Virus record (IMG/VR): IMGVR_UViG_3300037422_000298
DNA: 64,000 bases
Source of the DNA: a virus
Taxonomy: Duplodnaviria > Caudoviricetes
Reading direction: 5' to 3' (one strand)
Shown: piece by piece, positions 42,622-60,716 of the stretch
Position numbering within the stretch: the first letter of the stretch is position 1
How the letters are laid out: each line of letters starts with the position of its first letter
Notes under the pieces: generated by a model
Databases searched by the model: none
The model's input: the letters and a program-made list of their open reading frames with translations, nothing else
What the model was told of the DNA's origin: nothing
Program-made: the position numbers and the translations under genes

Positions 42622-44150
42622 ATGAGCGTTTCCAAGTGTCCACACGGCATCTTCACGCACAGCATCTCGAACCGCTGCCCGATTTGCTTCGGCGTCGACG
42701 CGTACAACAGCGACGCGATTCCGATCGTCGGCCACGGCAACGGTTGGTTGCTGCACAAAGGCGACTTGGTCTGTCCTGAGTGTGGCGGTCCGCGTACGGC
42801 AGGCTGGGGTGCGTACGACAACAGCAAGCGCAGTACGCCACCCGACCCGAAGAATCCGAACGACTGGCCGACGACGTGTTACGCCTGCACGAGCGGCAAT
42901 TCGAAGGCTGCGATCTTGAAACGTACTGCGCACGAAGCTCAGCGCGGCGTTCGCAAGACACCCGGAGCAAAGTGATGGGACGTCGAACCTACGAAGCCAA
43001 GATGATGATCGTCACGCCCGACATGGACACCGGGATGATCGTCTTCGCTAACGAACACGTGCACCGTGACATCGACGAGCTGGGCTCGCGCATGCTGGAA
43101 GACATCCTCGGCAAGCAGCAGCCACCCGATGCAGGCGTCTGGATCTGGGAAGGCAAGCAGGTTTGGTCATCAGGCTACCGCGGTCCTGACGGTGACTACG
43201 ATACCGACGTCGACTACCGCGACGGCACGTGGCGTCGTCCTACGGAGACCGAGATCGCACAGCTCGTCCGCGGCGAATCACCGTGGCCGAGGCCGCCAGC
43301 GGAGGACGCTGATGACTGAAGCAGAACGCGATCTGTTGATGATGGCCAACTACTACGAACCGGACCTCCCTCAAGCGTTGGCCAAAGCGATGGCGAGTGT
43401 CGACGTAGATCAGTTGCGAGCCCTCGCGCTCAAGTACATCAACGCGACCAAGGTGCTCGTCGACGGTGTAGACACCGTGCTGAGGCCGCGATCGTGAAGA
43501 CGTACCGCGCGATGCGCGTCACCCGAGCACCGATCTCGCCACCACTCTGCGCACAACACTTCAAAGAGACCGACGATGTGCTTCTCAAGGCGGATGACGT
43601 TGAAGTCGAAGAGCTAGACGATCCCTACTGCATCATGTGTCAGACAGCTGCTGCGCCCGACCGCACGTGCGGGAGCTGTGGCAAACCGCTCCACCCAAAC
43701 TGGCATGCGGTGTATTGCTCGAACGAGTGCGCGATCGCTGACTTGTGATAAGGTCCGCGGCTCGCATGAGCCCGGGATCTACAGTCGCAGCAGCGATCGA
43801 CGCAGATTGCGAAGCCTTGGAGCTTCTCGCCGTCGAGGTCCAGCTCAACGGCGCGACATCGCTCGCTAGCCAAGAGCTACTTGTGATACTGTCGGCGCAT
43901 GCTCGCCGCCGTGGAATTGCCCGAGAAACTCTGTGTGGTCCGCTGGACCGGACGTGTACGGCTGCACGTGGAAGTGCTGACCGTCTGCGGTATGAAGATG
44001 GACGCTGCTGATGGTGTCGTGCAGGTCCCAGACTTCATCTTCGACGGCCGACCTGTACTCAGCATCAGCGACTTCGGTGGCAAGGGACGTCGCCCGCTCA
44101 AAATCTGCGACGACTGCAAGAACGCAGTCGTCGCAGCGATCAAGGGCTAG
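42622..44150 (+). other. Small hypothetical genes (42622-42975, 42975-43319, 43312-43497, 43494-43748, 43899-44150)
   Basis: Overlap chain; several CxxC motifs. Confidence 0.5.
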
Positions 44151-44596
44151 AAGCGCCGAGCGCGACTGATCCCGAAGCCGATCGCGGCGATCCCTACAGC
44201 GATCGCGACGCCGATTCCGATCTTGGTTCCGGTCGACAGTCCCGCCTGTCCGCTCGTCACCCCCGCGCTCGTGTTGTTGACGTCCGCGACTACAGGAATG
44301 ATCTTGTCGGCAGCGCCACCCTGTTGAACAGCGAGTAGCCCGACTTCGGTGCGATCGTCAGCCGTCGCGATCGACTGTAAGAGCGTTCGAACGTCTTCGT
44401 TCGATGTCCCGTTGGCCGCTTTCGCGATGCGGTCCGCGAGCTGCGTCTTCTCGTCTTCCGTGAGGCCAAATAGATCAATGCCGCGCACACCGTTCACGCG
44501 GAATCGCGGATCGACTGGCGGCAGGATGTTCTCGACGTAGAACGGGACCACGGCGTACGGCCACGGATACGGTGCGCGAGGTTCGAGTGCGATCAT
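44147..44596 (-). CDS. C-terminally anchored membrane protein, paralog of 47254-47862
   Basis: FGLTEDEKTQLA vs FGALTEDDKNKLA; TM plus basic tail. Confidence 0.7.
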   Translation of the reverse strand: MIALEPRAPYPWPYAVVPFYVENILPPVDPRFRVNGVRGIDLFGLTEDEKTQLADRIAKAANGTSNEDVRTLLQSIATADDRTEVGLLAVQQGGAADKIIPVVADVNNTSAGVTSGQAGLSTGTKIGIGVAIAVGIAAIGFGISRARRF

Positions 44597-45603
44597 ACTG
44601 CGAGCCTTTCTCGTCGCACGTAGCGACGGCCGAATGCACTTGGATCTGGTTTCACCCACGGTGGTGGCGGTTCGTCCATGTAACGCAGGTGCATCTTGGC
44701 CGCCTTATAGGCGAGGTAGATGTCCTCTTCGGAATACCCCTCGTCGACCAGCTGATCGTGGATCTCTTTCTTGGGCACCTCATACGAGAGCGCTTGGGCG
44801 ATGCGGTTGATCAGTCGCTCGTCGACGATGCCGAGACCTCGGCGCTTTCCGAACGGTGCTTGTGCGGCGCGCCTCGCAGCACGCAGCACCAACCAGCTGA
44901 GTCCGACGAGGCCAACGACGGCAACGACGCCGATCGCGATCTTGGCGCCTGCTGACGTATCGGTCGTCAACGCATCTGGCGGCGTGGTCAGCGCGACGGC
45001 TAGCTGCTTGCCTGCGATCACGGCGCCGGGCTGCGTGAAGTGTACGCCATCGCTAGCGCGCCCCGCGACCGCGGTCAACGGTCGTGCATCGATCGTGCGA
45101 TCGGCGCCGAAGACCGTACGCAACGCGTCCAACATGATCGGCGCGCCTTGCGTGTAGCGGGCGTCTTGGTACGTCGGCGGTCCGATCGCGAAGATTTCGA
45201 CGTTACCGAGCTTGTCGCGGTACGCCTGTTTGATGCGCGTCAAGTCTTGAATCGTCCGTGCGATCGCCGCCGACGACACGCCGTTGTCGATGTCGTTGGT
45301 GGCCAACATGATCACGATCTTGGTCGGCCGAAACGCGACATCGTTGGCGATCAAGTTGCTGGCGTCTTCGTTGATGAAAAAGCTGCGAGCCGATCGTCCG
45401 ACACGTGCGTCGATGCGTACAGCTTGCGCCTGTAGATCTTCGAGCAGGTGTGCTGCCATCACCGCGCCCGGCGCCGATGACAACGCGGGCGCGGTACCAC
45501 TCCGGTCGCCCGCGCGAACATCGATGATCGTGGGGCCTGCATCGGGACCTGAGTGCGAGAGGCTGTCACCGAAGATCAAGATGCGTTCGCCTGCGACGTT
45601 CAC
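44593..45603 (-). CDS. SGNH/GDSL hydrolase with TM anchor
   Basis: IFGDSL (block I), MLATND (III), DGVH (V); TM about aa 220-240. Confidence 0.85.
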   Translation of the reverse strand: MNVAGERILIFGDSLSHSGPDAGPTIIDVRAGDRSGTAPALSSAPGAVMAAHLLEDLQAQAVRIDARVGRSARSFFINEDASNLIANDVAFRPTKIVIMLATNDIDNGVSSAAIARTIQDLTRIKQAYRDKLGNVEIFAIGPPTYQDARYTQGAPIMLDALRTVFGADRTIDARPLTAVAGRASDGVHFTQPGAVIAGKQLAVALTTPPDALTTDTSAGAKIAIGVVAVVGLVGLSWLVLRAARRAAQAPFGKRRGLGIVDERLINRIAQALSYEVPKKEIHDQLVDEGYSEEDIYLAYKAAKMHLRYMDEPPPPWVKPDPSAFGRRYVRRERLAV

Positions 45604-46550
45604 TCGTCGCTCCAGTCGCCGTCATCCCAGTCACGCCCGAGGAAACGCCCTGGGTGGCGTTTGGCGACGCGCTTGGAGACCTGCCAGGCGCCGAATGCGA
45701 GTCCGAGCAAGCTGCCGACGAGCAGCGTACCGACCAGGAACTGTTTGCCGGAGCTGGTCGGCGGCGCGCCTGGTGTGCCGCAGATCGGCAGGTTCGCGGG
45801 CCACACCGGGCGCATACTCGCGGCGACGATGCTGCCTTCGTAGACGGGATTGCCGAAGAACGTACGAGCACGCTCGATCAGTTGCTTGCCTTCGAACGAC
45901 TCAGGTTTGAAACCGAACGTGCGAAACTGCGTCGTCTTCCAGTGATCGACGCCGGGAATCGGCCCGACCCAATACTTGCCGTTCTTCGCTTCGCTCAGGA
46001 TGCGGTTCATCGGAACGGGGAAAAATTTCTTGAATTCGAGACCGTCCTGATCGTCGGCGCCGTGGTTGATGTTCTCGCTCTTGCCGCTGATCACGAGGTC
46101 CGCGAGCAGCGCAGACAGGATGCTCGGGTCGCGGCTAGTGGCCGCAAAACGACCGGTATTGCGCCCGCCAGGTACGTTGATCTCGCCGTACAGTTTCGTC
46201 GGCTGCGTGAACAGAAGCAGCCCGTTGACGTCTTGCTTGCGCCGCTTGGCTTGGTTGACCGCAACCTCGCCGACAGCGACGCGTTCTTCAGCGGTACCAC
46301 TGCCGACTTCGCTGTGGATGTAGCGCGCGAGCGTGTACATGTTCAGGTCGAGTGCTTTGCCCTTCGGCCAGAACGTCGACGCTTGCAGTTGTTTCTCGGC
46401 GCTCGCGCGCATGGTCTCGGGCGCGCATCGAATCTCGCCGGTTTCATCCGGTTTGCAGCCCGACGTCAGAATCGTCTTGTCGGCAGGGCCGCCGACCATC
46501 GGCGCGAACGTCGGGTGCCACGACGCATAGCAGTCAGGCGTTGCGGCCAT
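45600..46550 (-). CDS. SleB/Hydrolase_2-like cell-wall hydrolase with TM anchor
   Basis: TLARYIHSEVGS...RVAVGEVAVN; C-terminal TM. Confidence 0.6.
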   Translation of the reverse strand: MAATPDCYASWHPTFAPMVGGPADKTILTSGCKPDETGEIRCAPETMRASAEKQLQASTFWPKGKALDLNMYTLARYIHSEVGSGTAEERVAVGEVAVNQAKRRKQDVNGLLLFTQPTKLYGEINVPGGRNTGRFAATSRDPSILSALLADLVISGKSENINHGADDQDGLEFKKFFPVPMNRILSEAKNGKYWVGPIPGVDHWKTTQFRTFGFKPESFEGKQLIERARTFFGNPVYEGSIVAASMRPVWPANLPICGTPGAPPTSSGKQFLVGTLLVGSLLGLAFGAWQVSKRVAKRHPGRFLGRDWDDGDWSDE

Positions 46551-47250
46551 GTCTCACCCTCCGATGATGCTCGCGACGTCCGAGAGCGACTGCGGCGCGC
46601 TTCGCAAGAACCCACGCGAGCCAGCTGAGTCCGGCGAGACCTCCGACGGCGACCGTACCGATCACGATGTTGCGACCGGTCTTGCTTTCGGGCTGCGGCA
46701 CCGTCGCGAGTGGTTGCGGACGATCGCGGAACAGTGGAATACCCAGCTCGCGTGCGGTCGCGACGACTGTTGACGCATAGTTGTCGACAGGTAGCCATGG
46801 CTCGCTGGGAATGCCCGTCCCGAAGCCGAAATCGTTCGAGAAGCCTGTCGATGGTTTCCCGACGGTCTCGGTGATCGCCGGGATCAACGCCGCGGGCACG
46901 CTCAGATCGAAGTGCAGGTGCGGGCCTTCGGACAGGCCCGTGTTGCCAGACACGCCGATCTGTTGTCCCTTCGTCACGCGTTGTCCGCGCGTGACGAGCG
47001 CGCGAGATAGGTGGAGGTAGCGCGAGACGACACTGTCGTCGTGCGTCAACGCGACAAAGATTCCCGCGTCGCTTGTACCCGTCGGGTCGACGTTCCTGAC
47101 CGTACCGTTGGCGACGGCCAAGATCGGCGTGCCGACCGCGAGTGGAATGTCGAGTGCTGGATGGATTCCCGTCGAACGCATGCGCCACCCATCACCAATC
47201 GTCACGTTGACGTTGGTGGGCGCAACACGGCCGAGCGCGAGGTCGATCAT
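46534..47250 (-). CDS. M23 peptidase with TM anchor
   Basis: HPALD, RYLHL, IGVSGNTG, GPHLHF; C-terminal TM. Confidence 0.85.
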   Translation of the reverse strand: MIDLALGRVAPTNVNVTIGDGWRMRSTGIHPALDIPLAVGTPILAVANGTVRNVDPTGTSDAGIFVALTHDDSVVSRYLHLSRALVTRGQRVTKGQQIGVSGNTGLSEGPHLHFDLSVPAALIPAITETVGKPSTGFSNDFGFGTGIPSEPWLPVDNYASTVVATARELGIPLFRDRPQPLATVPQPESKTGRNIVIGTVAVGGLAGLSWLAWVLAKRAAVALGRREHHRRVRHGRNA

Positions 47251-47253
47251 GTA

Positions 47254-47862
47254 CTATCCTCGACGACGGTAACGCTTGGAGGTTGACGTGCGCCGACGGC
47301 GACGACCGAAGCCACCACGTTTGGGCTTCGCGAAGCCCTGCGCGAGCGCGATCGTCGGTGTGATGATAGGGAACAAGGCGCCCATCAACCCCCACCAGAT
47401 CGCCCAGCCAACGCTGTCGTTGCGCTTGTAGCCGTGATAGACGCTTGCCGCGAACGAGGCCGTGCTCGCGATACCCCATGCAATGCGAAACGGTGTCGGC
47501 AGCGGCTTGAAGAGCGTCTTGATTTGCGCATCACTCTGGATGTTTTGCAGGGCGGTGTTGATGCGTGTCGCGTCGCCGCCGAGCGCGATTGCTTTCACGG
47601 CGACGTCTGAGCGTTCTTGCGCGTCGGTGATCACCGCGAGGATGGGTTGGACATCGGCGCCGCTGTTGGCGGCGTTCTTGACCTGCTCCGCGAGCTTGTT
47701 TTTATCGTCTTCGGTCAGTGCACCGAACGCGCCGAAGCCGGGGATGTTGAACGGCACGTGCTGCACGAACCCGCCACCGCCTTCGACGATCGCGACGTCG
47801 TGAGGGCGCACCGGGTAGATGGTCTCGTCGCCGAGCGCAGAAGTGGCAAGTGCAGCTAGCAT
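47254..47862 (-). CDS. Membrane protein with Arg-rich tail
   Basis: Two hydrophobic segments, GGFG-RRRRR tail. Confidence 0.7.
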   Translation of the reverse strand: MLAALATSALGDETIYPVRPHDVAIVEGGGGFVQHVPFNIPGFGAFGALTEDDKNKLAEQVKNAANSGADVQPILAVITDAQERSDVAVKAIALGGDATRINTALQNIQSDAQIKTLFKPLPTPFRIAWGIASTASFAASVYHGYKRNDSVGWAIWWGLMGALFPIITPTIALAQGFAKPKRGGFGRRRRRTSTSKRYRRRG

Positions 47863-47939
47863 TTGCAGATCCTACACCGAAACAGCCGCTTGATCGCGCG
47901 AGCGATCGCGTTGTAGCGTCCGCCAAAACGGGGGAATCG

Positions 47940-48182
47940 ATGGCCAAATTCAAACCGACCGACGATCCGGTCTGGGGCTACTACGGCAAGCATCCTGCGC
48001 AGGCACGCTCGCAAGAGGAATTCACCGCGCTCGCTCGCGCGACGAAGCTGCGGACGCTGTTCGACATGTCCGAGCGCGAGATCCGCGCGCTGGAGCAGTT
48101 CTACGGCTGTCGCATCGTGCGGCCGGATCGCCCGAAGCGTGCCCGGCGATCGACTGGCGGCGCCGCCGCCGCGAGAGCTTGA
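47940..48182 (+). CDS. Hypothetical protein
   Basis: GGGGA RBS-like upstream. Confidence 0.45.
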   Translation: MAKFKPTDDPVWGYYGKHPAQARSQEEFTALARATKLRTLFDMSEREIRALEQFYGCRIVRPDRPKRARRSTGGAAAARA

Positions 48183-48266
48183 TCCCGGCCGGGATCTGCG
48201 GCTGACCGGGTCTAAATACCCGGAAATCCGCCCGAATCTGCCTTATAGAATCAGCTACTTACGAGT

Positions 48267-48288
48267 TTACTCTCGCTTTGCTGAATAA
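48267..48288. promoter_or_regulatory. Recurrent motif TTACTCTCGCTTTGCTGAATAA
   Basis: Matches 1-17 and 2539-2560; heads the + strand island. Confidence 0.55.
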
Positions 48289-48353
48289 TGGTGGCTTCCT
48301 GCGCGTCGTACCTGGCACAATTGCCAAGTAGCTCTCGCTAAGGAAAACACCCC

Positions 48354-48830
48354 ATGGCTACGCAAGACACGCAGGACGCTCCCAGGCCCGGTCGACTGAT
48401 GGACGGTGCCCAGGCGCGCAAGTTCGTTCTCGGCGGGAACGCTCGTGTGACGCTGGTCAGCGTCAAGACCGGCACGCGGTTCACGTTTCGCGTCCGTGCG
48501 AAGAACTTCCCGATCCCCAAGGGCGAGGCTGCGGCGCCGCCTTGGTTCGTGGCCCTCCTGACGGGGCGGGACAACAACTCGGACTACACGTTCCTCGGGA
48601 CGATCTTCGAGGACAACTCCTACCGTCACAGCCACAAGAGCCGCGTGACGCCGGATGCGCTGTCCGCGAAGGGTTTCGCGTGGGCCTGGGCCTACCTCGC
48701 CAAAGGCGAGCTGCCGCCCGGCTGCGAGGTGTGGCACGAGGGTACTTGTGGTCGTTGTGGGCGTGGGTTGTCGGTCCCGGAGTCGATCGCTCGCGGGCTC
48801 GGCCCCGAGTGTGCAGACGGAGGATTCTAG
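48354..48830 (+). CDS. DUF6011-like zinc-finger protein
   Basis: CGRCGRGLSVPESIARGLGPEC; AAGGA RBS. Confidence 0.75.
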   Translation: MATQDTQDAPRPGRLMDGAQARKFVLGGNARVTLVSVKTGTRFTFRVRAKNFPIPKGEAAAPPWFVALLTGRDNNSDYTFLGTIFEDNSYRHSHKSRVTPDALSAKGFAWAWAYLAKGELPPGCEVWHEGTCGRCGRGLSVPESIARGLGPECADGGF

Positions 48831-48833
48831 GTC

Positions 48834-51800
48834 ATGACGACGAAGTTCAAACACGGCACGTTGGACGAGCACCGCGGCGACGGTGGTCGTTACGTCAAAG
48901 CTGATCGGTGCGACGCCTGTGGCAAGGCGTGCAACGAAGCGACGCGGATGACCGACGACGAGGTGTGCGAAGGCTCGGACGGTCCGGGATTCTTCCTGTG
49001 CGATCGCAAGCGCTGTATGGCGAGCTACGCCGAACTGCCTGTCGAGGCGCGCCGGGAGCTGTTCACCGCGCAACGCGCGAAGAACGGGAGCTGCTAGCCA
49101 TGACGACGAAGACCAAGCTCAAGTGGCATCGCGAGGGTTACGACCGGTACGAGGATCAGTACCTCATTCCAGTCGGGCAGGAGCGCACCGAGGACGACGA
49201 TCTCAACGTCGACGCAGCGGTTGCGTGGATCAAGATCGCGTACAGCCGTGTCCGGTTCTTCAATGGACGCGGCGGTGAAGGCGAAAGCAGGCCTGATTCC
49301 TACGTCGCGTACGTGCAGGACACGGGTCGGCGCCGTCACCTCGGCCGTGCGATCGTCGAAGGTGCAACGGAAACCGCGCATGTCGGAGGGTTGTTCTCCG
49401 ACAAGATGGAGCGTTCGTTCACGACGCTGCGTGCTGCGAAGAAAGCAATCGCGGCCGAACTGGCGAAGATCGAAGCTGAGAGCGCGGCGCACTTCGGCCA
49501 CAAGGGCGGCGAGTGCGAGCGCTGCGACGCCGCTGACAAGATCATCGAGCGCTTGGCGGTCGAAGATGCGCATGGCGGCGCTTGGCAGTCGACGGACGAG
49601 CTTCCCAACGAGCTGTGTATGGATGCTGCGTCGTGCAGTGTGTGTGGCGGTCCGTTGATGCCGCTCGGCGCACTCGGGACGGTCAATCACTTCCGGTGCC
49701 GCAACTGCGGCATGGACTCGCACGCGAGGAGCGCGTCGTGAAGATCAAGCTCGATAACCTCGATCGCGACGACGGCTCCGTCATGATCACGACCGTCGAC
49801 GATCGACCGTTTCTTCTGACTGCCCTACTCGCTGAGGGCTACGACGTCGATGATTCGGAGTACGTCGAGCCAGCTCGTCCAAGGAGCGCGTCGTGATGTC
49901 GTTCTACGTTGCAGTCCCGAACGTGCATCCGATCGTGTATCAACTCGTGGACACGGTGCCCGTGTCGACCGATCGGCACCGGAACTGGCGCGGCTACGCC
50001 TTCGAGCAGACGCCCGAGTTCATCGTCCACAGCAAGATGCACGGCAGCCACGACAAGGCCAAGCCGTACGTCGTGCGCGGCGTCGACAAGAGTGGTCGAC
50101 TGCTCGTACAGACGATCGCCGAGAGCGTGACCGAGTACGACAAGATCGACACCTGGCACGAGATCGACGGCGAGTACACCGTCGAGGGCTACCGCTTCAA
50201 GCGTTACGCGCTCAAGCCGATGCTGACGCTGATCAAGCTCGGCGTGACCGCGGCGAAGACTCGTGCACGCGTCGAGAAGAAGGCCGCGAAGCAGGGCGAG
50301 CGAGACGAGAAGTGCGGTACGTGTCCGTGCTGCTTCGGTGACTACGTCGTGACGACGGCCCACCTTGCAAGGTATCGACACGTGACGACCAAGATGGTTC
50401 ACCACGGCTACGTGACGACCAAGATGGTTCACCACGGCTACGAACGGCCAGGCTACGGCTACATCGTCGGTGATTGTCACGGCGTCGGGTTCGAACCGTT
50501 CGAAGTCTCGTGTGAAGGCACGAAGTCGTGGCTCAACCAGCTTCGTGGCATCTTGAACTACCGCCGCGAGGCGCTGCGACAACTGGATCTCCACGATCAG
50601 ATCACCGTCGAGTACAAGGTTCGTCGTGGCTGGGGCGGCAAGGCGCAGCTCGAAAAGAAGATCATCAAGCGTGGCGAAGATGGCTTCAAGGAGGCCGTCG
50701 AGAATCGTCGATACGAGCTGGAACGCGACATCGAGAAGATCACGCGCGACATCGGCGAGTACGAGAAGCGAATCGCCGAATGGAAGCCGCAGCCGTGGCC
50801 TCGCGTCCAGAAGGGCAAGTGACATGTCGCAAGAGCTGTTGAACTACAAACGCGTCGATCTCATCAACTGCTCGCCGCACCAATGGTGCGAGGTGCTCGC
50901 GCTCGCGGCGAAGATCGGCGTCACCGACGCGATGGTCGGGAACAAGGAGCGTTCGCGCAAAGACCTAGCAGCGCTGCTCGCAACTGACCATCGCGTCGGT
51001 CACGCGCGTGCGCTCAAGAGCGCGTACAGCGCCGGGCGCTTTCACGTCGACGTGATGGGGAAGGACTAAATGAAGCGCGTCGACATCAAGGCAATCCTGC
51101 GCGATCCCGTGCAGCGTCGAGAGCTGTGCGTGCGAACTATCATTGCTACGCAAGCGCGCGAAGGCATCGTCACTACGCGTGCGCAGGCCGAGGCTGCGTA
51201 CGACAACGTCCAGAAGGAGCGCAAGTAACCGTGTCGAATCCAGTCCATCTGCAGCTCGAACGCGAGATCGTCAACATGATCGAGTCGACGATCGAGGACA
51301 CGCGCGTCCCGGATGCCGTTGCTGCGCACGCGGACAAACGTGCAGGTAAGCCGGTTACATCCAAGGACGCTGAGACGCTCGAAGCACAGCTCGGTATCCC
51401 CGTTCGAATTTCGAAGCGCTACGGCATGACACACGTAGCGTGGGCGAAGGGTGAACCGCCCAACCCGTGGCGGGATGAAGGCTCGATCTTGATCTCGAAC
51501 AGCGACACGGGCGTGCGCTGGCCGACCGCCGATGAACTGCGCAGGAAAGAACCAGCGCACTACGGTGCGCGCGACGAGCGCAACCAGAAGCGTCGCCAGC
51601 TTCTGCAGGAACACGTTACGATGCGCGACGCGATCGGTCGCGCAGGCGTTCCCGAGATCACCGACCAGTCGATGATCTATCGTGCCGCGCAGGCAATCGT
51701 CCAGTTTCGCGAGGCGCGCGAAGCACTTCGCAAGCTCTTCGACTACGACGAACCGTTGCACGTCGTGCGCTACAACGTCAGCCGCATGCTTGGAGTGGAT

Positions 51801-52704: not shown

Positions 52705-52737
52705 TCTCGCCAGTGAGTGTCGCCGCCGGAGGCGGCG

Positions 52738-53052
52738 CTACTTGAGGCGGATCTCGATAGTGACGGGGCCGATGAAGCCGCTCCGGCCCTGAACTTGGAG
52801 GCGGCGGGTCTCGCCGGTCAGAAGCTGCGCTTGGACGGCATTGCGGGTATTGGGTACCGCGGCGGTGAGCTTGGTCGTCCAGTTGGCGTCGGTCGCGTTC
52901 GTCAAAAACGCCTTGATGGTCGAGTCGGCGCGACAGTCGTCGGCCATCTCTTGCTGCGTACGAGAGGTGGTCGTGTCGCCTTGCCCATCGCTGATCCATT
53001 GGTACTGCAGCGCGTTCGGCAACGTAGCTTTGAGTTCGAGTGCAGCAGCCAT
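52738..53052 (-). CDS. Hypothetical protein
   Basis: Clean ORF continuing the - strand module. Confidence 0.55.
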   Translation of the reverse strand: MAAALELKATLPNALQYQWISDGQGDTTTSRTQQEMADDCRADSTIKAFLTNATDANWTTKLTAAVPNTRNAVQAQLLTGETRRLQVQGRSGFIGPVTIEIRLK

Positions 53053-53061
53053 ATCGCCAGC

Positions 53062-53331
53062 TTAACACTCCGGCGGCGCGGCTGCGACGATCGCCTGGCC
53101 AACGGCGCCGACGCCGACGATGCTAAGACCGATCACGAGGGGCGCTTTGCTGTCTTTGTTGCTGCTGGTGACCCGCAACAGACCGCCGAGAATGGCGCCC
53201 CCAACAAGTCCAACGATGGCGCCGAGCGCTGCGCCTTCGACAGCTCGTGATGCGCGAGACTGCGGTCGGCAGCTCTGTTCGTCAGCGTGCGGTTCGCAGT
53301 GTCGCGCGAGCGATCGTCGTCGATGGCGCAT
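53062..53331 (-). CDS. Small two-TM (glycine-zipper) protein
   Basis: GAALGAIVGLVGG; ends PEC like its upstream neighbour. Confidence 0.55.
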   Translation of the reverse strand: MRHRRRSLARHCEPHADEQSCRPQSRASRAVEGAALGAIVGLVGGAILGGLLRVTSSNKDSKAPLVIGLSIVGVGAVGQAIVAAAPPEC

Positions 53332-53807
53332 CAGCACTCCGGCTTGTGCGCGCCAACGGCCAGTCCGGCGATGGCGCCGACGACCGTGATGCCGCTGGCG
53401 ACAACGGCCATGTTTCGGAAGCGTTTGACGGCCTCGACAGGCGCGGTCACGCTGGTTTGCGTTGTCACGACGGCGAGCGCGACACCCCCGCCAATCATGC
53501 CGCCGAGAAGGGTACCGATCAGAAACCCGACGCTGCCGCGCACCCAGCGCGGACTGTCCGAACAGGCGGCGTCTCCGAAACCGTTCTGCTTTAACAGAAG
53601 TTGTTCGTGTCTTACTCCCGTTCGTCGAATGTAGTAAGGACGACCCTTGTTTTCGCACAGGTGATCGAGAGCAATTTCACGTGCGATTCCTCGATCACGC
53701 GTGTGCTCCATTTCGACGTCTGTCCCCAACTTGAGTTGAGCAGGATCGACATCCTTGGCCGTGCAGCCATGCCGTCGAGCGTAGCCGTTGGGTATACGGT
53801 AGCGCAT
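53331..53807 (-). CDS. DUF5661-like domain plus two TM helices
   Basis: LKLGTDVEMEHT...IAREIALDHL.E...YY, then GFG and TMs. Confidence 0.65.
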   Translation of the reverse strand: MRYRIPNGYARRHGCTAKDVDPAQLKLGTDVEMEHTRDRGIAREIALDHLCENKGRPYYIRRTGVRHEQLLLKQNGFGDAACSDSPRWVRGSVGFLIGTLLGGMIGGGVALAVVTTQTSVTAPVEAVKRFRNMAVVASGITVVGAIAGLAVGAHKPEC

Positions 53808-53844
53808 GCCTCGACGATACCACAGGCGATCGCGGGAGCGATCG

Positions 53845-54081
53845 CTACGCGGCTTCGACGCCGGGCAGCCCCAATCCTGACCGCAGGAGGTCTCGAACCG
53901 CGGCCGACAGGTTCGGCCGGTCGTAGTTCTTGGCACGTGGCGGAATGCCTTCGAGCTTGCGTGCATGCGCTTCGAGCTTCTCGCGTAGCTCGTCGTCGAT
54001 CACGACGTGCAGATGCGAGATGCGATCGTTGGCGCGACTGGCGCTCGATCGCGTACGGGACTGACGTTTGGACTTGCTCAC
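53845..54081 (-). CDS. Ribbon-helix-helix DNA-binding protein
   Basis: LHVVIDDELREKLE...NLSAAVRDLL; TATAAT 7 nt before GTG. Confidence 0.65.
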   Translation of the reverse strand: MSKSKRQSRTRSSASRANDRISHLHVVIDDELREKLEAHARKLEGIPPRAKNYDRPNLSAAVRDLLRSGLGLPGVEAA

Positions 54082-54127
54082 GCGTGCGATTATACTCGCG
54101 CTTTGCGCGAAGTGCTAGTCTTCCGCG

Positions 54128-54553
54128 TTACGTGTCCCACTCGTCGCGATCGCTGGCGCGACTGAGTGATCGTGCTGCGAAGACACCGGCAACTGCGAGG
54201 GCAGCAAGCCCGATTACGCCGCCGAGGATGATCTTACGCGACGTCGTCTTGCGCGTTTCGTCGTCGGTAGCTTGCCCGAGTCCGAATGTCGGCACGCCTG
54301 GCTGTAGGTACATGTTCTGATCGAACAGGTAGTGATAGCGGCCGGTCTGCGCGCGCGGGTAGTGCCGACCGACCACGCCTTGGTAGATTCGGCTCTGATC
54401 GTAGTACATCGGCGCGACAGGAAACCCGGCCGCGTAGAAGTCGGGGAAGCCGTAGCGGTAGCCGCCGACCCATCGCCTGACGAGGTCGTTCGCGCTCTCG
54501 TAGTGAGGCACGTACGGCGCGTCGGGCTCGATCGCGAACTCGGCGGTGAACAT
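54128..54553 (-). CDS. Tyr-rich membrane protein
   Basis: FGLG boundary then TM. Confidence 0.65.
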   Translation of the reverse strand: MFTAEFAIEPDAPYVPHYESANDLVRRWVGGYRYGFPDFYAAGFPVAPMYYDQSRIYQGVVGRHYPRAQTGRYHYLFDQNMYLQPGVPTFGLGQATDDETRKTTSRKIILGGVIGLAALAVAGVFAARSLSRASDRDEWDT

Positions 54554-54560
54554 CTACGAC

Positions 54561-55523
54561 CTACCAGCTCCGGCTACGGCGGCCTCGACGTCCGCGACCG
54601 AGCGCGGGTCTGTAGCTGTCTTCATACGCCATCGCAGGCTTGTGTCGCGCGGCGGAGACGGCTGCGAGTGCCGTGAGGCCGACCATCGCGGCAGCGGTGC
54701 CGATGATGAGACCGGTCTGCGGCCCTCGGGTTGCGCCAGGCTTCACGAACGGGAGCGCCTCGATCGTCGTCGGATCGAGCGCCGTTTGAACCGGCTGGTT
54801 GTTGCGCGCTTTGAACGCCGTCACCAGCGTGTCGAAGTTGTTCGAGACGTCGTTCAGGTACTCGGCAACCTCCGACGACATCTCGGCGAGAATGCCGTTG
54901 TTCAGCGGATTGATGAACGCGATGGCGACGTTCCGGTTCGGGATCTGTTTGAGCGCGCCCGCAAACGTGATTGCGAGTGCCGTCGGGCCACGCGTGCTGT
55001 CACCGACGATGCCGTCGATGCCGCCACCGCCGCCGGTCGCGATCGGGTTGTCCTGGATTTCACCGATGCGCGCACAGTTGCTGAACGTTCCTGATCCGTC
55101 TTCGCGCGGGAACTCGGCGCAGAGCTGATCGTCGGACAACTGCCCACGCAGACCAGCGTTGACGAGCGTGATGAGGCGATCCACGGCCTGCTGCATGCGG
55201 CGGATCGGCGCCTTGGCGCCGTCGCCGGTCTGGTTCAGGACGCACTGGACACGGTTCGTGTTCGCTTCCTTGTTGCAGAAGACGACATTGCCGAGACCGA
55301 ATCCTGCGGGATCGCCGACGAAGGATGCCGGTAGCGGTTGGCCGTTGTTGAAGGCGTTGAAGTCGCTGACCGGCTGTCCGAATCCGGCGAAGTAGCCGAA
55401 CCCGGTTGGAGGTTGTGGCGCGTTGAAGCGGCTGAAGTACTGCGCGAACGTTGCCGGTTGTGCTTGCCCGAAGCCGTGGCCGTAACCATAGCCCCAACCA
55501 GGAGTGTACGTGCTTGCGAGCAT
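54561..55523 (-). CDS. Membrane-anchored protein with peptidoglycan-binding-like motif
   Basis: GIDGIVGDST; repeated GFG; TM plus Arg tail. Confidence 0.65.
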   Translation of the reverse strand: MLASTYTPGWGYGYGHGFGQAQPATFAQYFSRFNAPQPPTGFGYFAGFGQPVSDFNAFNNGQPLPASFVGDPAGFGLGNVVFCNKEANTNRVQCVLNQTGDGAKAPIRRMQQAVDRLITLVNAGLRGQLSDDQLCAEFPREDGSGTFSNCARIGEIQDNPIATGGGGGIDGIVGDSTRGPTALAITFAGALKQIPNRNVAIAFINPLNNGILAEMSSEVAEYLNDVSNNFDTLVTAFKARNNQPVQTALDPTTIEALPFVKPGATRGPQTGLIIGTAAAMVGLTALAAVSAARHKPAMAYEDSYRPALGRGRRGRRSRSW

Positions 55524-55577
55524 GGATTTTGCCTCTTGACTGAGCCTACCACAAAGTCGATCGCGCAAGCGATCGCG

Positions 55578-56360
55578 CTACCGCTTGGGACGCTTTTCCC
55601 AGCACCGCATGACGACGTTGGGGCTCGACGGTACGTCGCACGGTATCTGTCGAAAGCCTGCTTTGCGAAGTGCTTGCGCGCGACCGGGACGCCGTCCTTC
55701 CCACCATTCCTCGTCGTATCCCAACTCGGCAGTGTGTTGCCGACGGCGGTAGCGGCGCACGGCAACGATCGTTCCGATTGCGGCAGCGGCGATCCCGCCC
55801 GCGATGATCCATACGAACAGCGGCACGCGCGTCGCGTCGCAGATCTCGCTGATCTCGATCGCCTTCGCTTGTTCGGTGCCGCGAACGCTCTTGCACATCG
55901 TCTTGGCGCGCGTGCACGCTGGGCTCGAACGGCTCTCACGACACGCATCGACGACTTGTTGGATGACGGACTTGATCTCCGGCGGCGGCGGTTCTTGCTG
56001 AGTCGCTACGACCTCAGCTGGCGTCGCAGACGACTGCAGCACGCCGACGGCTTCGAGATCGCGCACCATGGCCTGCAGCTGCGTGATCAACTCCGGTGCT
56101 GCTGCAGCTAGCTCCTCGCGGGTCGTCGGTGCTGTCGCGTTGGCGATCGTGGCCGCTTTCTGTGCGGCAGCGAGAGTCTCGTCGCCGATGAAGCCGTCGA
56201 CGATGATCGGCGTGAACTTGTCGCCAAGAGTCGCGAAGCGGTTGATCAACACCTGCAGCGTCTTGAATTGATCGTGAATTGCTCCGATGCCGAAGCAGAT
56301 CGGTAGCGGGTCGCCTGCCTTGTCGACGCACTTGAAGTCGGTGTTGATCGTCAGTGCCAC
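55578..56360 (-). CDS. PG-binding-like membrane-anchored protein (paralog 1)
   Basis: TDFKCVDKAG.PLPICFGIG...LQ...IVDGFIGDET; TM. Confidence 0.7.
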   Translation of the reverse strand: MALTINTDFKCVDKAGDPLPICFGIGAIHDQFKTLQVLINRFATLGDKFTPIIVDGFIGDETLAAAQKAATIANATAPTTREELAAAAPELITQLQAMVRDLEAVGVLQSSATPAEVVATQQEPPPPEIKSVIQQVVDACRESRSSPACTRAKTMCKSVRGTEQAKAIEISEICDATRVPLFVWIIAGGIAAAAIGTIVAVRRYRRRQHTAELGYDEEWWEGRRPGRAQALRKAGFRQIPCDVPSSPNVVMRCWEKRPKR

Positions 56361-57103
56361 CAGCTGAAGTCCTTGTCGGAGGCGGTACTGTCGTCACCGT
56401 CGAAGTCATCGTCGCCGTCGAGATCGTCTTCGCCGTCGAGATCGTCTTCGCCGTCGAGATCGTCGTCGCCGTCGAGATCGCTATCGTCGTCGCCGTCGAG
56501 ATCGTCGTCGGCACCGAATGCAGGCTGCAGGCGTGTCTTCCGTCGGTAGTACATGAAACCGACACCACCAACGACAGCAACTACTGCGAGACCGCCGAGG
56601 ATCCACGGCAGGAATTTCTTGAGCGTGGATTTGGGAGCCGGGCCGGTGGTTGCTGCGATGATCTCGTCGGCGGCTTCCTTGGGCAACTCGGCTGTTGTGG
56701 TTGTCGCAGTGATCGGATCTACCGGTTGGCCTGGCGGCGCGAGTTTCGCAGAATCGAGCCTTTCTTGTTCTGCGATAAGCCGGTCAAGCCGCGCTGTGAG
56801 TTCGACTGCTTGCGTTGTGAGTTCTTCTTTGGAGTTCGGGGACTGTCCCGACAGCAAAGTGCTTTGGAAAACTTTCTGTACAAACGCGAGTGTTGCAGGT
56901 CCAACGAAGCCATCGACGACAAGCGGTGTCTCGATAGCTTCGGTGAAGGGTAGGCCTACGTTGAGTACAAGACGGAGGCGATTCAGACTTCGCTGCAAGA
57001 GCTGCAGCGCGATGTGGTTGTTGTCGCCAATGCCGAAGCAGATCGGCAGCGGGTTACCTGCGCGGTCGACGCACTTGAAGTCTGTGCCTTGAACGAGCGG
57101 CAT
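56351..57103 (-). CDS. PG-binding-like membrane-anchored protein (paralog 2), acidic tail
   Basis: Same N-terminal domain; DDLDGE repeats. Confidence 0.7.
   Translation of the reverse strand: MPLVQGTDFKCVDRAGNPLPICFGIGDNNHIALQLLQRSLNRLRLVLNVGLPFTEAIETPLVVDGFVGPATLAFVQKVFQSTLLSGQSPNSKEELTTQAVELTARLDRLIAEQERLDSAKLAPPGQPVDPITATTTTAELPKEAADEIIAATTGPAPKSTLKKFLPWILGGLAVVAVVGGVGFMYYRRKTRLQPAFGADDDLDGDDDSDLDGDDDLDGEDDLDGEDDLDGDDDFDGDDSTASDKDFSWWH
56391..56510 (-). repeat. Imperfect 18-nt coding repeat (DDLDG[DE])
   Basis: TCGCCGTCGAGATCGTC recurs. Confidence 0.85.
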
Positions 57104-57106
57104 CGG

Positions 57107-57883
57107 CTATCGCCTCGAACGCCGTTTTGAGGTCTTCTTCGAACGCTTGCGTTTCGAGCGCTTCGTGCGGCCTTTGCCGAGCGCCGCCTTGGGCGCTGTT
57201 GTTGCTGGCGGTGGAAGCGTCGACGCGGATCGCGTCGGTGCAGCCTGCGTCGCCTTGTGTCGATAGTAGGCAAAGCCGACGGCGCCGACGATCACAACCG
57301 CTGCGGCACCGCCTAAAACCCAGGGCAGGATGCTTTTCTTTTCGGGCAACGCTGCGACGGCCGCATCGGCGGCTTCTACAGTCGGCGCGGTCGTGCTCAC
57401 GGTGACTTCGTCGGCAGCTTTCGAGGGTACGCCTGCCTGTTTGACGATCTCCGTGGTCGGTTGAACGGGCTCGCCACCTGGCGCGAGCGCCTCGCCGCCT
57501 TCTACGGCGAGCGCTTCGAGCTGCGCGATGATCTCGCGCGCGTTCTGTGCGACCAGTTCCTTGGTTGTTGTATCCGCGCCCAGGTCACTGGCGAGTCTTC
57601 CGAGTGCTGCAACGGTCAACGGACCGATGAAACCGTCGACGATAAGCGGCGTGAACGCACGCGACAGCGAGAACTTATTGATGCGCTGTTGCAGCGTTTG
57701 AAGAAGTGCATGGTTCGCAGCGCCGATCCCGAAGCAGATCGGAAGTGGCTTGCCCGCCTTGTCGACGCACTTGAAGTCGGTGCCCTGCGCGAGCGCCTGG
57801 CCCAAGTTGGCGGGTGCGTAGCCGTACCCGTAGCCGCCGTAGGATGCAGGAACCATGGCCATCCGCCCCCAAACGTGTATCAC
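57107..57883 (-). CDS. PG-binding-like membrane-anchored protein (paralog 3), basic tail
   Basis: Same domain after ANLG; K/R-rich tail; start uncertain. Confidence 0.7.
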   Translation of the reverse strand: MIHVWGRMAMVPASYGGYGYGYAPANLGQALAQGTDFKCVDKAGKPLPICFGIGAANHALLQTLQQRINKFSLSRAFTPLIVDGFIGPLTVAALGRLASDLGADTTTKELVAQNAREIIAQLEALAVEGGEALAPGGEPVQPTTEIVKQAGVPSKAADEVTVSTTAPTVEAADAAVAALPEKKSILPWVLGGAAAVVIVGAVGFAYYRHKATQAAPTRSASTLPPPATTAPKAALGKGRTKRSKRKRSKKTSKRRSRR

Positions 57884-57991
57884 GCACCGCCTGGATCGGT
57901 CAAAGATCGCGCGAGCGATCGACCGTCAGAATCGCGTCGAAACCTCGATCACGCCCGCGATCCAGAGTAGGATGAACGAGCAAGGCGCATC

Positions 57992-58315
57992 GTGACGAAC
58001 TCCATGAACCCCAACGGATCGCGCGTGGTGGTCGTGCTTTTCACGATCCCCGGTTGCGACGCGTGCCGCGAGTACAAGCCGCGCTTTCAGCGCGTCGCGC
58101 AGCATTACCAAGGACACGTGCCGGTCATGATGCTCGATGCAAACGATCCGCGGTGTGCAGACCTCGCGAATCGTTTGAATGTCACGAACGTGCCTGCGAC
58201 GTTCGCGTTGCGGCGCCCTACAGGCATGATTCGCATCGAAGGCGCAATTCCTGATTCTCAAATCGCGTGGCTGTTCGGTATTGCTGCGCGCGAAGCTGCA
58301 AGTCCAAACTACTAG
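57992..58315 (+). CDS. Thioredoxin-family protein
   Basis: FTIPGCDAC (CxxC), VTNVPAT (cis-Pro). Confidence 0.85.
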   Translation: MTNSMNPNGSRVVVVLFTIPGCDACREYKPRFQRVAQHYQGHVPVMMLDANDPRCADLANRLNVTNVPATFALRRPTGMIRIEGAIPDSQIAWLFGIAAREAASPNY

Positions 58316-58328
58316 AGGAGATGACCAC

Positions 58329-58652
58329 ATGATGTACGCCAGTTTTCGCGGCGCTGACGGGCAAGTTCTCGGTCAGGTCGCTGTCGATCCGTCTGCGGCC
58401 GGTGGCCTGCAGGGAGCGCTCGCCGATGCCGTCGAGAAGCTGCAGCGGACCGGCAACCTGCCAATGAACGCGCGACCGATCCCGCCCGCGTTCTTGCCGC
58501 CGGGACCGCCGCAACCCGTCTCGCAGTCACGGCCGTTCGTGTGCCAGCTACGCTACCTGACGCGCGCACCGAACGGTCAAGTGCTGTGGGCGGTCCGCTC
58601 GATCAACTGCCCCGTCGGCCTGCCGCCCGGCACGTACATCCACACGCCGTAG
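58329..58652 (+). CDS. Hypothetical Pro-rich protein
   Basis: GAGGAG RBS. Confidence 0.55.
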   Translation: MMYASFRGADGQVLGQVAVDPSAAGGLQGALADAVEKLQRTGNLPMNARPIPPAFLPPGPPQPVSQSRPFVCQLRYLTRAPNGQVLWAVRSINCPVGLPPGTYIHTP

Positions 58653-58661
58653 CGGCGGCGC

Positions 58662-59312
58662 TCAGTAGTAGCCGTAGCCGTAGCCACCGTAGTAGCCGAA
58701 CGTCGACACCGTGTCTGGCGGCGTCGGCGTCGGCGTGACCGGCGTCGGCGTGACTGGGGCAACCGGCGGCGTCACTGTCGTTGGAGTCTCGGCCTGCTTC
58801 TTGGCCTCGTCGGCAGCGGTCTTTGCCGCGACAGCTGCCGTGATCAGGCCACCGACCGTCGTCATCGCGCCGAGCCACAACGCGGGCGCCCACACGCGCT
58901 CGGTGCGCGCGAGACCGAACGCAGCAGCGAACGTGAGCATCGTGATCGCGCCGCTACCAACTGCGATGGGCACGCCGAGCGTGACCATCTTGTTGCGGAT
59001 GGCTTGAACGCGCTCCGCAACGGTCTGCGTGATCGTCGCTTGCATCAGTGCGCCATCGGCGCCAAGACCGAACATGCGCCGTGCGGCAGTTGCTCTTGCT
59101 GTGGCAACAGACGCTTTGCGCGCAAGCTGCCAGCGTCGATTGGCCTGCATGAGGGCTTGAGCAGCAGCGCCTTCCTTGGGAACGCTGATGCAACATGTAT
59201 CGACGCAATATGTTCCCTCCGAGTCCTTCCCCCATTTACAGCAGTAGCAAACCGTCTGGGTCTCCACTGCGTTAAAGCCGGAGAATGAATTGTTCGATTG
59301 GATGGCGAGCAT
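58662..59312 (-). CDS. Membrane protein with Cys-rich N-terminus and PT/GY-rich tail
   Basis: MFGLG boundary, two TMs, GGAG RBS. Confidence 0.65.
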   Translation of the reverse strand: MLAIQSNNSFSGFNAVETQTVCYCCKWGKDSEGTYCVDTCCISVPKEGAAAQALMQANRRWQLARKASVATARATAARRMFGLGADGALMQATITQTVAERVQAIRNKMVTLGVPIAVGSGAITMLTFAAAFGLARTERVWAPALWLGAMTTVGGLITAAVAAKTAADEAKKQAETPTTVTPPVAPVTPTPVTPTPTPPDTVSTFGYYGGYGYGYY

Positions 59313-59385
59313 GGTGCGATCTCCACCGGGTAGTGTCTTTTACACTAACCGATCGCGCGAGCGATCGCGAGCAGTTGCTTGCCGT

Positions 59386-60149
59386 TCAAGCGCCGTTTTT
59401 ACGCGTGTCCGGGAACTTCCGGTCTGCGTACCGAAAGGTGACGTAGAACAAGCTGCAAGACAGTAGATCGATCCCGAGCACTGTCGCAGTCGGCCACGAG
59501 GGCGGGAACATGCCCGCGATGTAGACCGGGATGTAGATCGCGAAGAAGATCAGCGCGCAGATCGCGAGGCTGATCGGGTTGCTACGTGCGCGCCACGAAC
59601 GCACGAAGCGGATGAGCACTGGCAGCCACGCGAGGGCGAGGGCGCAGGCAATGCCGAGGGGTACAGCGGTTTCTGGCACGTGGATGTTTCACGACTTCGA
59701 GACGACCCGGTGGCCGGTGCCGTTCATGGTGTCGGTGAGATCAGTGCTCGCGCGCCCGAACCGCTGTACGTGTCGCCGCTGTGCGACCTCGGCGGCGTCG
59801 TGAATGCGCTGATCGACGATGGCCGTCTCCACCTTGATGGAGCGTCGTTGACGGTATTGCCACAGTCGTAACGTCACGACGAGGACCACGAACACGATCA
59901 CTGAAGCGATGAAGGACCACATGTTGTTCACTTCTCCTTTTCAGGATCGAGGTCTGGTTCTTTGCCCTCTTCGAGGGCGGCAACTTCGGTCGGGACGTCG
60001 AGCGTCTTGGCCATGACAGCAACGGCGATCGCGATTCGCTTTAGCTCACTGCGCATGTCTCGCAGCTCGCGCGTGTACATCTTCATGAGCCACACCGAGA
60101 AAGCGATTGGGAACCCCCATCGCTCGATCAGTGTTTGAAGGATGTCCAC
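59386..60149 (-). other. Three small membrane proteins (59386-59679, 59689-59931, 59928-60149); the last is holin/YvrJ-like
   Basis: Hydrophobic helices; WGFPIAFSVWLM resembles the GFPIA motif. Confidence 0.5.
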
Positions 60150-60167
60150 GGCTCACGTCGACGCAGA

Positions 60168-60416
60168 TTACATCTTGCTCGCGACGCAGCTGCGGAACTG
60201 CCGTCCGTGCTTGCCGCGGCACGCGCGCGAGGCCTTTGCGAGAGCGCGCTTGTATGGCGCGAGGTGCCGCGTCGATGGCTTCTTGCGCGGCGAACAACCT
60301 GCGCCGGTCTTGCCGCGGAACGAGATCACCTTGCCGCGTTTGGTCTTGAAGCGAACGATGCCGGTACGGCACCCACCACGGCTCTTGCTGCGCTTCCTCT
60401 TGCGTGCACCGAACAT
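60168..60416 (-). CDS. Small very basic protein
   Basis: MFGARKRKRSK...; AGGAG RBS. Confidence 0.7.
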   Translation of the reverse strand: MFGARKRKRSKSRGGCRTGIVRFKTKRGKVISFRGKTGAGCSPRKKPSTRHLAPYKRALAKASRACRGKHGRQFRSCVASKM

Positions 60417-60435
60417 ACTGTTCTCCTGTTGCGCC

Positions 60436-60594
60436 TTAGCGCTTGACGAAGGGATTCGGACGGACCGCTGGGCGCACCGCCGGACGAGCCGGTTGTTGAC
60501 CCGGAACCGTGCGCACGCAGCAGTTGCTGTTCGCGCCGGGACGCGGACCTACTACGGGACGCACAGGTACTTTGGGAGCACGACGACCGAACAT
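60436..60594 (-). CDS. Small Arg/Pro-rich protein (52 aa, not in ORF track)
   Basis: MFGRRAPKVPVRP...KR*; extended -10 six nt upstream. Confidence 0.55.
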   Translation of the reverse strand: MFGRRAPKVPVRPVVGPRPGANSNCCVRTVPGQQPARPAVRPAVRPNPFVKR

Positions 60595-60716
60595 GCCGCC
60601 ATCCTAGCACGATCCCAAGAGCGATCGCGCAAGCGATCCGCGCGAGAACGTAGACGATCCCGACAGCGACTGTTTGACCGTTTCGTTGGGTCCTCGTACA
60701 GTCGAGCCCAAGCGCC

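Follow-up and report, generated by a model that had tools for sequence, protein, structure and literature searches.

Hydrophobic-glycine junction motifs on membrane proteins of a large bacterial virus lineage, and a C39-type peptidase that may cut them

Two minus-strand gene clusters and their shared motif

In a 64,000-nucleotide stretch of the virus record IMGVR_UViG_3300037422_000298 (Duplodnaviria; Caudoviricetes), hereafter the window, the products of two minus-strand gene clusters, operon A and cluster B, share a two-residue motif, Phe-Gly or Leu-Gly ([FL]G), at the borders of their domains. We propose that these pairs, more exactly a hydrophobic residue followed by Gly, with Ala or Ser at times in the last place, are probably the junction signals of a lineage-specific tag system, as judged from their distribution and conservation in sequence. 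The window has a GC (guanine plus cytosine) content of 62% and is densely packed, phage-like, with small genes (Table 1; genes are named here by their first coordinate). The relatives used throughout were gathered by protein search and retrieval of syntenic loci; one of them, L011, is collinear with window positions 44.6-64 kb at a protein identity of about 40-80%. Of the 17 minus-strand proteins with homologue support, nearly all are without a signal peptide and carry a membrane helix at the C-terminus. DNA and protein searches of cultured phages gave no match for the region, nor for the 47254 and 45600 proteins, and most cluster proteins matched nothing in PHROGs and Pfam.

The initial annotation had placed the motif in a range from 44147 to 60594, which holds for the sites, all of them in minus-strand genes, and fails as a description of a single block, interrupted as it is by the plus-strand block. 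Long minus-strand open reading frames within that block (48267-53068) were rejected as antisense artefacts, and they had contributed none of the motifs listed; gene 53331-53807 is genuine by its DUF5661 match and its homologues. All 15 listed instances are present where they had been placed, in minus-strand genes with homologues elsewhere. They fall in 13 proteins, which upholds a motif common to many proteins and lowers the count of at least 14 given for them. To these we add the 46534 N-terminus, 54561 residues 48-49, 44593 residues 324-325 and 57107 residues 226-227.

The 17 minus-strand proteins hold 58 [FL]G pairs where 34.3 (standard deviation 5.4) are expected, a 1.7-fold excess that none of 2000 within-protein shuffles reached; for FG alone the excess is 2.6-fold (29 against 11.3). 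The comparison with plus-strand proteins that had been suggested as a check places the enrichment in the minus-strand set only, the 83 plus-strand proteins of the window having 95 pairs for 98 expected. The excess also has a position: [FL]G occurs within the first 30 residues in 10/17 minus-strand and 12/83 plus-strand proteins (p=3e-4), a count that includes a few sites outside leaders, the GDSL block for one, and it is followed by a charged tail within the last 60 residues in 10/17 against 8/83 (p=3e-5), bearing out the basic or acidic tails first described.

Table 1. Genes, junction motifs and promoter-like boxes in the window
Feature	Position	Strand	Motif sites and remarks
Plus-strand genes	up to 44150	+	Gene call checked against relatives
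Operon A	44147-47862	-	Gene call checked against relatives
149-residue protein, paralogue of 47254 middle domain, C-terminal membrane helix	44147..44596	-	FG 44465-44470 directly before shared domain; FG 44171-44176 at helix end, then short basic tail
SGNH/GDSL-like esterase, then membrane helix, then tail with extra C-terminal domain	44593..45603	-	FG 44848-44853; LG 44830-44835; FG 44629-44634 before basic end
SleB-like cell-wall hydrolase candidate, C-terminal membrane helix	45600..46550	-	LG 45636-45641 before acidic tail
M23 peptidase, C-terminal membrane helix	46534..47250	-	N-terminal LG 47230-47235; LG 46579-46584 before basic tail; Pfam PF01551 85.8 bits
Membrane protein with two-helix hairpin	47254..47862	-	Leader LG 47830-47835; FG 47722-47727 before shared domain; FG 47305-47310 before poly-Arg tail
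Plus-strand block	47940 to about 53300	+	Gene call checked against relatives
Cluster B	53331-60416	-	Gene call checked against relatives
DUF5661 putative pro-domain, then conserved Cys-containing membrane domain ending in Cys	53331..53807	-	FG 53574-53579 between the two
78-residue protein, basic N-terminus	53845..54081	-	Ends G-L-G-L-P; conserved in relatives
141-residue protein: conserved N-domain, variable spacer and membrane helix	54128..54553	-	LG 54275-54280 between N-domain and spacer
320-residue protein: Met-Leu leader rich in aromatic-Gly, body, membrane helix, basic tail	54561..55523	-	FG 55467-55472 and FG 55377-55382 before body; LG 54597-54602 before basic tail
Three paralogues, peptidoglycan-binding-like motif, C-terminal membrane helix	55578-56360, 56351-57103, 57107-57856	-	Weak PG_binding_3 match
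Tails of the three paralogues (mixed, acidic, basic), mutually unrelated	55719-55724, 56513-56518, 57176-57181	-	Each tail after LG/FG at these positions
N-terminal leader of 57107, the only one among the three paralogues	57800-57805	-	Ends in LG
216-residue membrane protein, Met-Leu leader with Cys-rich insert, aromatic-Gly-rich C-terminus	58662..59312	-	LG 59061-59066 before conserved body
Three small proteins of the same operon	59386-59679, 59689-59931, 59928-60149	-	Conserved in relatives
82-residue very basic protein	60168..60416	-	M-F-G start (60408-60413), then Lys/Arg run
17-base palindromic box CGATCGCT-N-GCGCGATC, six copies before tagged genes	47892-47908, 53828-53844, 55559-55575, 57905-57921, 59351-59367, 60623-60639	-	
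Further box copies	2513, 16578, 28319, 30722, 41868, 48784, 54147		

Conserved junctions, exchangeable leaders and tails

Of the 74 cells in which a homologue was aligned to one of 12 sites, 68 have a hydrophobic-[GAS] pair in the same column; the adjoining leaders and tails vary, are lost or are swapped between basic and acidic among homologues, and some homologues terminate exactly at the hydrophobic-Gly pair. The earlier observation that homology between paralogues starts at the motif was confirmed, the 44147 and 47254 proteins aligning from it onward, and it extends to the other border, shared homology among 55578, 56351 and 57107 stopping at the membrane helix. The shortest leaders have three residues and the longest, which take in a DUF5661 domain, about 75; structure models show the 54561 leader (residues 1-50) and the tails as disordered. 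Leaders and tails thus behave, to judge from the alignments, as optional modules attached at the motif, which is a genuine conserved boundary signal, as had been claimed, and no effect of composition.

The same pattern extends to whole genomes. In G001, a 221-kb relative (whole genome, CheckV 100% complete), [FL]G lies within the first 25 residues of 22/37 proteins starting with Met-Leu or Met-Phe and of 47/312 others (p=1e-8), 14/20 tagged proteins are membrane proteins as against 56/329 of the rest, and a cluster of small soluble proteins has poly-Arg ends joined through hydrophobic-Gly. G002 repeats the pattern more weakly. G003 and G004, similar in size and GC, show no tag signal genome-wide, and in the membrane proteins of these high-GC 200-kb phages [FL]G stands at 74 for 89 expected and 204 for 250 expected. 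G001 and G002 carry a membrane-anchored, motif-flanked peptidase of family C39, while G003 and G004 have only a distant soluble C39 without Gly junctions or a membrane helix. The tag-free state of G003 and G004 therefore disfavours a composition artefact and, on few genomes, ties the tags to the anchored type of C39.

Within operon A, the leader, shared-domain and poly-Arg-tail sites of the 47254 protein are kept in 5/5, 4/5 and 6/6 homologues, and both sites of the M23 peptidase in 2/2. The 47254 hairpin domain (residues about 120-182) has ~1400 representative relatives, 645 of them at E below 1e-10 and most of them short viral proteins that close with Q-G-F-G and a handful of basic residues; it belongs to no Pfam or PHROG family, a protein-atlas search with 47254 gave low-scoring leads only, and the domain could be holin-like. 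The esterase scores 28.8 bits against Pfam Lipase_GDSL_2, under the cut-off of 32.9, and its homologues have the tail motif only where the extra domain follows. For the 45600 protein, which has 141 homologues, the AlphaFold2 model (predicted local distance difference test, pLDDT, 89) ends the helix at residue 298 and puts the motif at 304-305, ahead of a disordered tail. Its best Foldseek match is a SleB catalytic domain, weak at E 0.7 and a template modelling (TM) score of 0.63 on the target, and a pattern scan of IMG/VR found no relative of it. Among its relatives P0011-P0023, some have an N-terminal membrane helix instead, often followed by F-G or L-G, and others fuse the SleB-like domain to an SGNH esterase in a single protein of ~545 residues.

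In cluster B, the alignment of the 54561 protein (A1; 13 sequences, down to 44% identity) has P306, A307, G309 and R310 invariant, a post-helix site P-A-L/F-G-R amid varying flanks, and G49 is invariant as well. With an overall pLDDT of 52, and values below 50 at residues 1-50 and 248-320, the model of this protein could not support a fold search, and neither A1 nor the alignment A3 matched a solved structure in profile searches. The 54128 motif is kept in 7/7 homologues, whose sequences diverge completely beyond it, three of the relatives adding a domain of ~150 residues. At the 58662 junction relatives have a short leader ending in FG, and in relatives of the 60168 protein a leader of 10 residues, LG being its last two, stands ahead of the same Lys/Arg run. 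The 53331 protein matches Pfam DUF5661 at 31.1 bits; leaders differ or are absent among its homologues, and the motif stands at the aligned column in 5/7 and within four columns in 1 more. Membrane helices are predicted in 59386 (by eye) and 59689, none was found in 59928, and none of the three has a clear junction motif.

Several features of these proteins lie beside the junctions. DUF5661 sits inside the leader, upstream of the junction, in the 53331 protein and in the C39 peptidases of some relatives (P0156, P0160), where, from its placement, it behaves like a removable pro-domain. Nearly all members of the 53331 family (homologues in L005 and L007-L011) end in Lys-Pro-Glu-Cys (53331-53336, minus strand, in the window), which suggests a disulfide or a modification at the terminal Cys. 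The 60168 protein, which has >30% Lys/Arg and several Cys and is conserved in relatives, may be a DNA-condensing core protein. Low-complexity Gly-Tyr and Gly-Phe repeats (58662-58700, 55470-55510 and 57800-57845, minus strand) mark ends of 58662, 54561 and 57107 and of their relatives; they may be sticky or interfacial, and they may raise the [FL]G count. Known signals were also considered. A lipobox in the 53331 family was rejected: no hydrophobic region comes ahead of the Cys, which is placed four residues past the Gly. Signals of the sortase, exosortase and rhombosortase types were rejected as well, since there the helix comes after the motif and here it comes first, and so were prepilin-type sites.

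The palindromic box before the tagged genes has 17 matches in the window at <=2 mismatches, for 0.76 expected. Of its six minus-strand copies, the five that were read onward (all but 60623) lead into an extended -10-like element ahead of a start codon, and the box is probably the shared promoter or operator of one regulon. Its presence before tagged units of both clusters makes A and B appear to be one regulon.

A C39 peptidase and the possible fate of the junctions

The initial annotation had found no protease in the window, and tblastn with the three C39 peptidases of relatives returned nothing there better than E 0.04. A viral cysteine protease bearing the same motif does exist in the lineage, in the genomes of relatives. 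In L001/L002 and L004, a Peptidase_C39 gene adjoins the same enzyme cluster as operon A, with PF03412 matches of 60.6 bits (L002:3573-4187) and 61.6 bits (L004:8461-9009; cut-off 22), and a C39 gene is present in single copy in the three near-complete relatives G001-G003. Q22, C28, H112 and D128, the oxyanion Gln and the catalytic Cys, His and Asp, are invariant in an alignment of 38 sequences. The 57 homologues follow one layout: a Met-Leu-type leader, [LF]G, the catalytic domain, a basic stretch with [LF]G, a linker, a membrane helix and an Arg-rich end. [LF]G precedes the catalytic domain in 50 of 56 readable cases, with L-A or L-S in 4 more, and follows it, before the membrane helix, in 47 of 54. 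This bracketing resembles the layout of self-releasing viral proteases. The Ulp1/adenain-like enzyme first sought is not what was found: the candidate is C39, of clan CA, and G001-G003 have no match to Peptidase_C48 (Peptidase_C5 was not searched). The L004 peptidase also passes the C70 cut-off (24.8 against 19 bits), and a search of phage proteins with the relatives' C39 matched a single uncultured 595-kb phage record. Among IMG/VR genomes, C39 homologues were located at 15 loci.

The phage of the window is present in samples JGI 3300043185 and SRR13020435. One family member, P0154, was found in the same two samples as the exact window protein, its longest contig being 241 kb, and its neighbours have poly-Arg tails behind hydrophobic-Gly; P0154 is probably the C39 copy of the window's own genome. 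The contig bearing P0154 also encodes, by precomputed Pfam matches, a GP88-family protein split by an intein with a LAGLIDADG domain (L013:253-2703).

We put at about even the chance that the junctions are cut after Gly by this virus-encoded, membrane-anchored C39 peptidase. Viral membrane proteins would be made with an N-terminal leader, typically Met-Leu, a few residues and hydrophobic-Gly, and in many of them a further hydrophobic-Gly, some 10-20 residues past the helix, would lead into a charged tail of poly-Arg/Lys or poly-Asp. By cutting after the Gly, the peptidase would take off the leaders and some of the tails at the least, and it would free itself from its own leader and anchor. We infer the cutting itself, the identity of the enzyme and the purpose, either virion maturation or the timed activation or release of cell-wall enzymes, from sequence. 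What favours cutting by C39 is the confinement of the enrichment to tagged genes, the conservation in 68 of 74 homologue cells, the modular leaders and tails, the motif-bracketed peptidase, the co-occurrence of P0154 with the window protein, the division of G001 and G002 from G003 and G004, and a precedent within clan CA, AvrRpt2, for cutting after Phe-Gly. C39 enzymes cut at GG, GA and GS sites, and the tolerance of Gly, Ala or Ser in the last place of the junction matches this.

A number of observations weigh against such cutting. In single-pass proteins the N-terminal and post-helix sites lie on opposite faces of the membrane, and with its catalytic domain N-terminal of its own helix one anchored enzyme cannot reach both unless it cuts before insertion. 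Three-residue leaders (M-F-G, M-W-G) make odd substrates, and a protease reading hydrophobic-Gly alone leaves the conserved Met-Leu start unexplained. In the wide hairpin family, Q-G-F-G with 3-5 basic residues is a plain protein end, and in the 45600 model the motif comes right after a long membrane helix, both of which fit a structural cap. The 45600 junction is moreover degenerate (hydrophobic-G, hydrophobic-S-G or hydrophobic-R-G), and most distant homologues lack it and have short, plain tails. Tags and C39 type are associated in a comparison of three genomes with two only, P0154 is linked to the window through shared samples with no contig read through, and the window itself yielded no C39 gene by tblastn.

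Much of this would be expected if the motif were an uncut hinge or sorting tag, hydrophobic-Gly capping a juxtamembrane helix or ending a flexible leader, with leaders and tails staying on. Retained tags could then serve delivery to the viral membrane or assembly site, DNA binding (the basic tails) or charge balance, and the motif in the peptidase would merely mark one more tagged membrane protein. The disordered tail beyond the helix in the 45600 model, the degenerate motif of that family, the sites on both membrane faces, the hundreds of hairpin-domain proteins in which cutting off a few basic residues would be purposeless, and a Met-Leu start better suited to recognition than to mere cutting all fit this explanation. 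Against it, a plain hinge would require no hydrophobic residue ahead of the Gly, and unrelated proteins would not have to share one pair at their N-terminal, internal and C-terminal borders alike; in about 90% of 57 homologues the pair brackets a protease catalytic domain, and a single permanent function is hard to assign to basic and acidic tails on paralogues. On balance we regard uncut tags as unlikely, with a sizeable share of the probability nonetheless, and as the chief alternative to cutting by C39.

Improbable, in our estimate, is that another enzyme cuts the junctions, be it a transglutaminase-like membrane protein, a papain-like C1 peptidase or a host protease, and that C39 has some other task. 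A second candidate protease does occur in G001, a membrane protein with a Transglut_core match of 23.2 bits for a cut-off of 23 (L033:7097-7942; G001 67097-67942), within a block (60.5-70.4 kb) of Met-Leu-tagged proteins, several of them tail-anchored by a hydrophobic stretch and an Arg run; a Peptidase_C1 gene occurs in G003, and two enzymes could serve the two membrane faces. The transglutaminase-like match is borderline; C1 is absent from the tagged G001 and G002 and present in the tag-free G003; and only C39 is single-copy in G001-G003, its anchored, motif-flanked form accompanying the tags. That the motif arises by chance or from the composition of Gly-rich, high-GC membrane proteins, a reading to which we give hardly any weight, is largely refuted: some motifs do lie inside Gly-rich helices or aromatic-Gly ends, but the shuffles, the unenriched plus-strand and G003 and G004 proteins and the conserved columns all speak against it.

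Beyond the cutting of single junctions, we raise a wider possibility, tentatively and as somewhat less than an even chance: that a lineage of very large uncultured bacterial viruses practises a proteome-wide tag-and-trim on membrane and DNA-associated proteins, with a self-releasing, membrane-anchored C39 acting during particle assembly, as a bacterial-virus counterpart of adenovirus maturation that would derive from a bacteriocin-processing enzyme. The membrane-containing virion proposed by the initial annotation had been set against standard tailed-phage machinery. G001-G003 gave no match to four Pfam models, one HK97 capsid, two terminase and one portal (PF05065, PF03237, PF03354, PF04860), which divergent genes could escape; the more distant G004 has one weak terminase match of 20.7 bits. 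Nor did G001-G003 match the FtsK-type PF01580, again a family whose divergent forms may escape Pfam, while relatives gave no protein-primed polymerase by Pfam and L014, reaching 8.5 kb past the window end, no Pfam capsid-family match. Operon A, with its esterase, SleB-like protein, M23 peptidase and hairpin protein, could be a lysis cassette rather than encode virion proteins; for operon A and cluster B together, entry enzymes of a membrane-containing particle and a lysis cassette are equal candidates.

Comparison with known systems

Proteolysis is a familiar route of maturation in tailed phages, adenoviruses and giant eukaryotic viruses. Our search of the literature turned up neither a phage served by a C39-type peptidase nor a leader-and-tail code common to the membrane proteins of a phage. 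Junctions that are cut would reveal the way in which membrane proteins are sorted and activated in a large phage group about which little is known, a simple sequence rule would predict mature protein ends across hundreds of metagenomic genomes, and a bacteriocin-leader peptidase would have been recruited to virus assembly or lysis timing. If the junctions are not cut, the shared tags would still be a compact sorting signal.

The capsid targeting sequences of T4, which prohead protease gp21 removes (gp175 in phiKZ-type phages), are likewise short N-terminal tags shared by unrelated proteins; they steer these proteins into the particle and are then cut off. The T4 prohead protease gp21 is a serine enzyme of the herpesvirus assemblin fold that cuts after Glu in tailed-phage proheads. 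In the lineage studied here, by contrast, the tags sit on membrane proteins, and the relatives are without a capsid, terminase or portal match in the Pfam families searched. In joining an esterase, a SleB-like protein, an M23 peptidase and a two-helix membrane protein, operon A resembles both the membrane-associated lytic enzymes of the PRD1 type and classical holin-endolysin cassettes; it differs from both in that each enzyme has its own C-terminal helix and a charged tail behind the motif, without a signal peptide.

AvrRpt2 (family C70, clan CA) recognises PxFGxW, processes itself and cuts membrane-tethered substrates after Phe-Gly (10.1101/583054). Three window sites read P-x-F/L-G, and the L004 peptidase, as noted, passes the C70 cut-off; contrasting with this plant-pathogen effector, which has no membrane anchor, the window sites lack a Trp two places past the cut, and the similarity of the lineage enzyme to C39 is much above that to C70.

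As with adenain (AVP), a single viral cysteine protease would act on many unrelated particle proteins, very basic DNA-binding ones among them, and trim them at motifs that contain Gly; the basic 82-residue protein with its leader (60168-60416) recalls adenoviral core precursors. The parallel drawn by the initial annotation does not extend to the cleavage sites themselves: the window lacks (M/I/L)XGX-G and (M/I/L)XGG-X, the fourth residue before the cut being R, V, G, P or A and the second F or L. Adenain also belongs to clan CE rather than CA, the host here is bacterial, and a virion location of the proteins is putative.

The lineage enzyme also resembles the C39 double-glycine leader peptidases (ComA, PCAT1 and LahT domains; PF03412), at ~61 bits and with Gln, Cys, His and Asp invariant. 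Their substrates, like the putative ones here, begin with a short leader whose last residue is small (G, A or S). At the putative junctions Phe or Leu precedes the last residue, in contrast to the Gly-Gly, Gly-Ala and Gly-Ser sites of C39 systems. The lineage enzyme is virus-encoded and is not fused to an ABC exporter, being a separate protein anchored by a C-terminal membrane helix, and in place of small secreted peptides it would process at least a dozen large membrane proteins together with charged tails.

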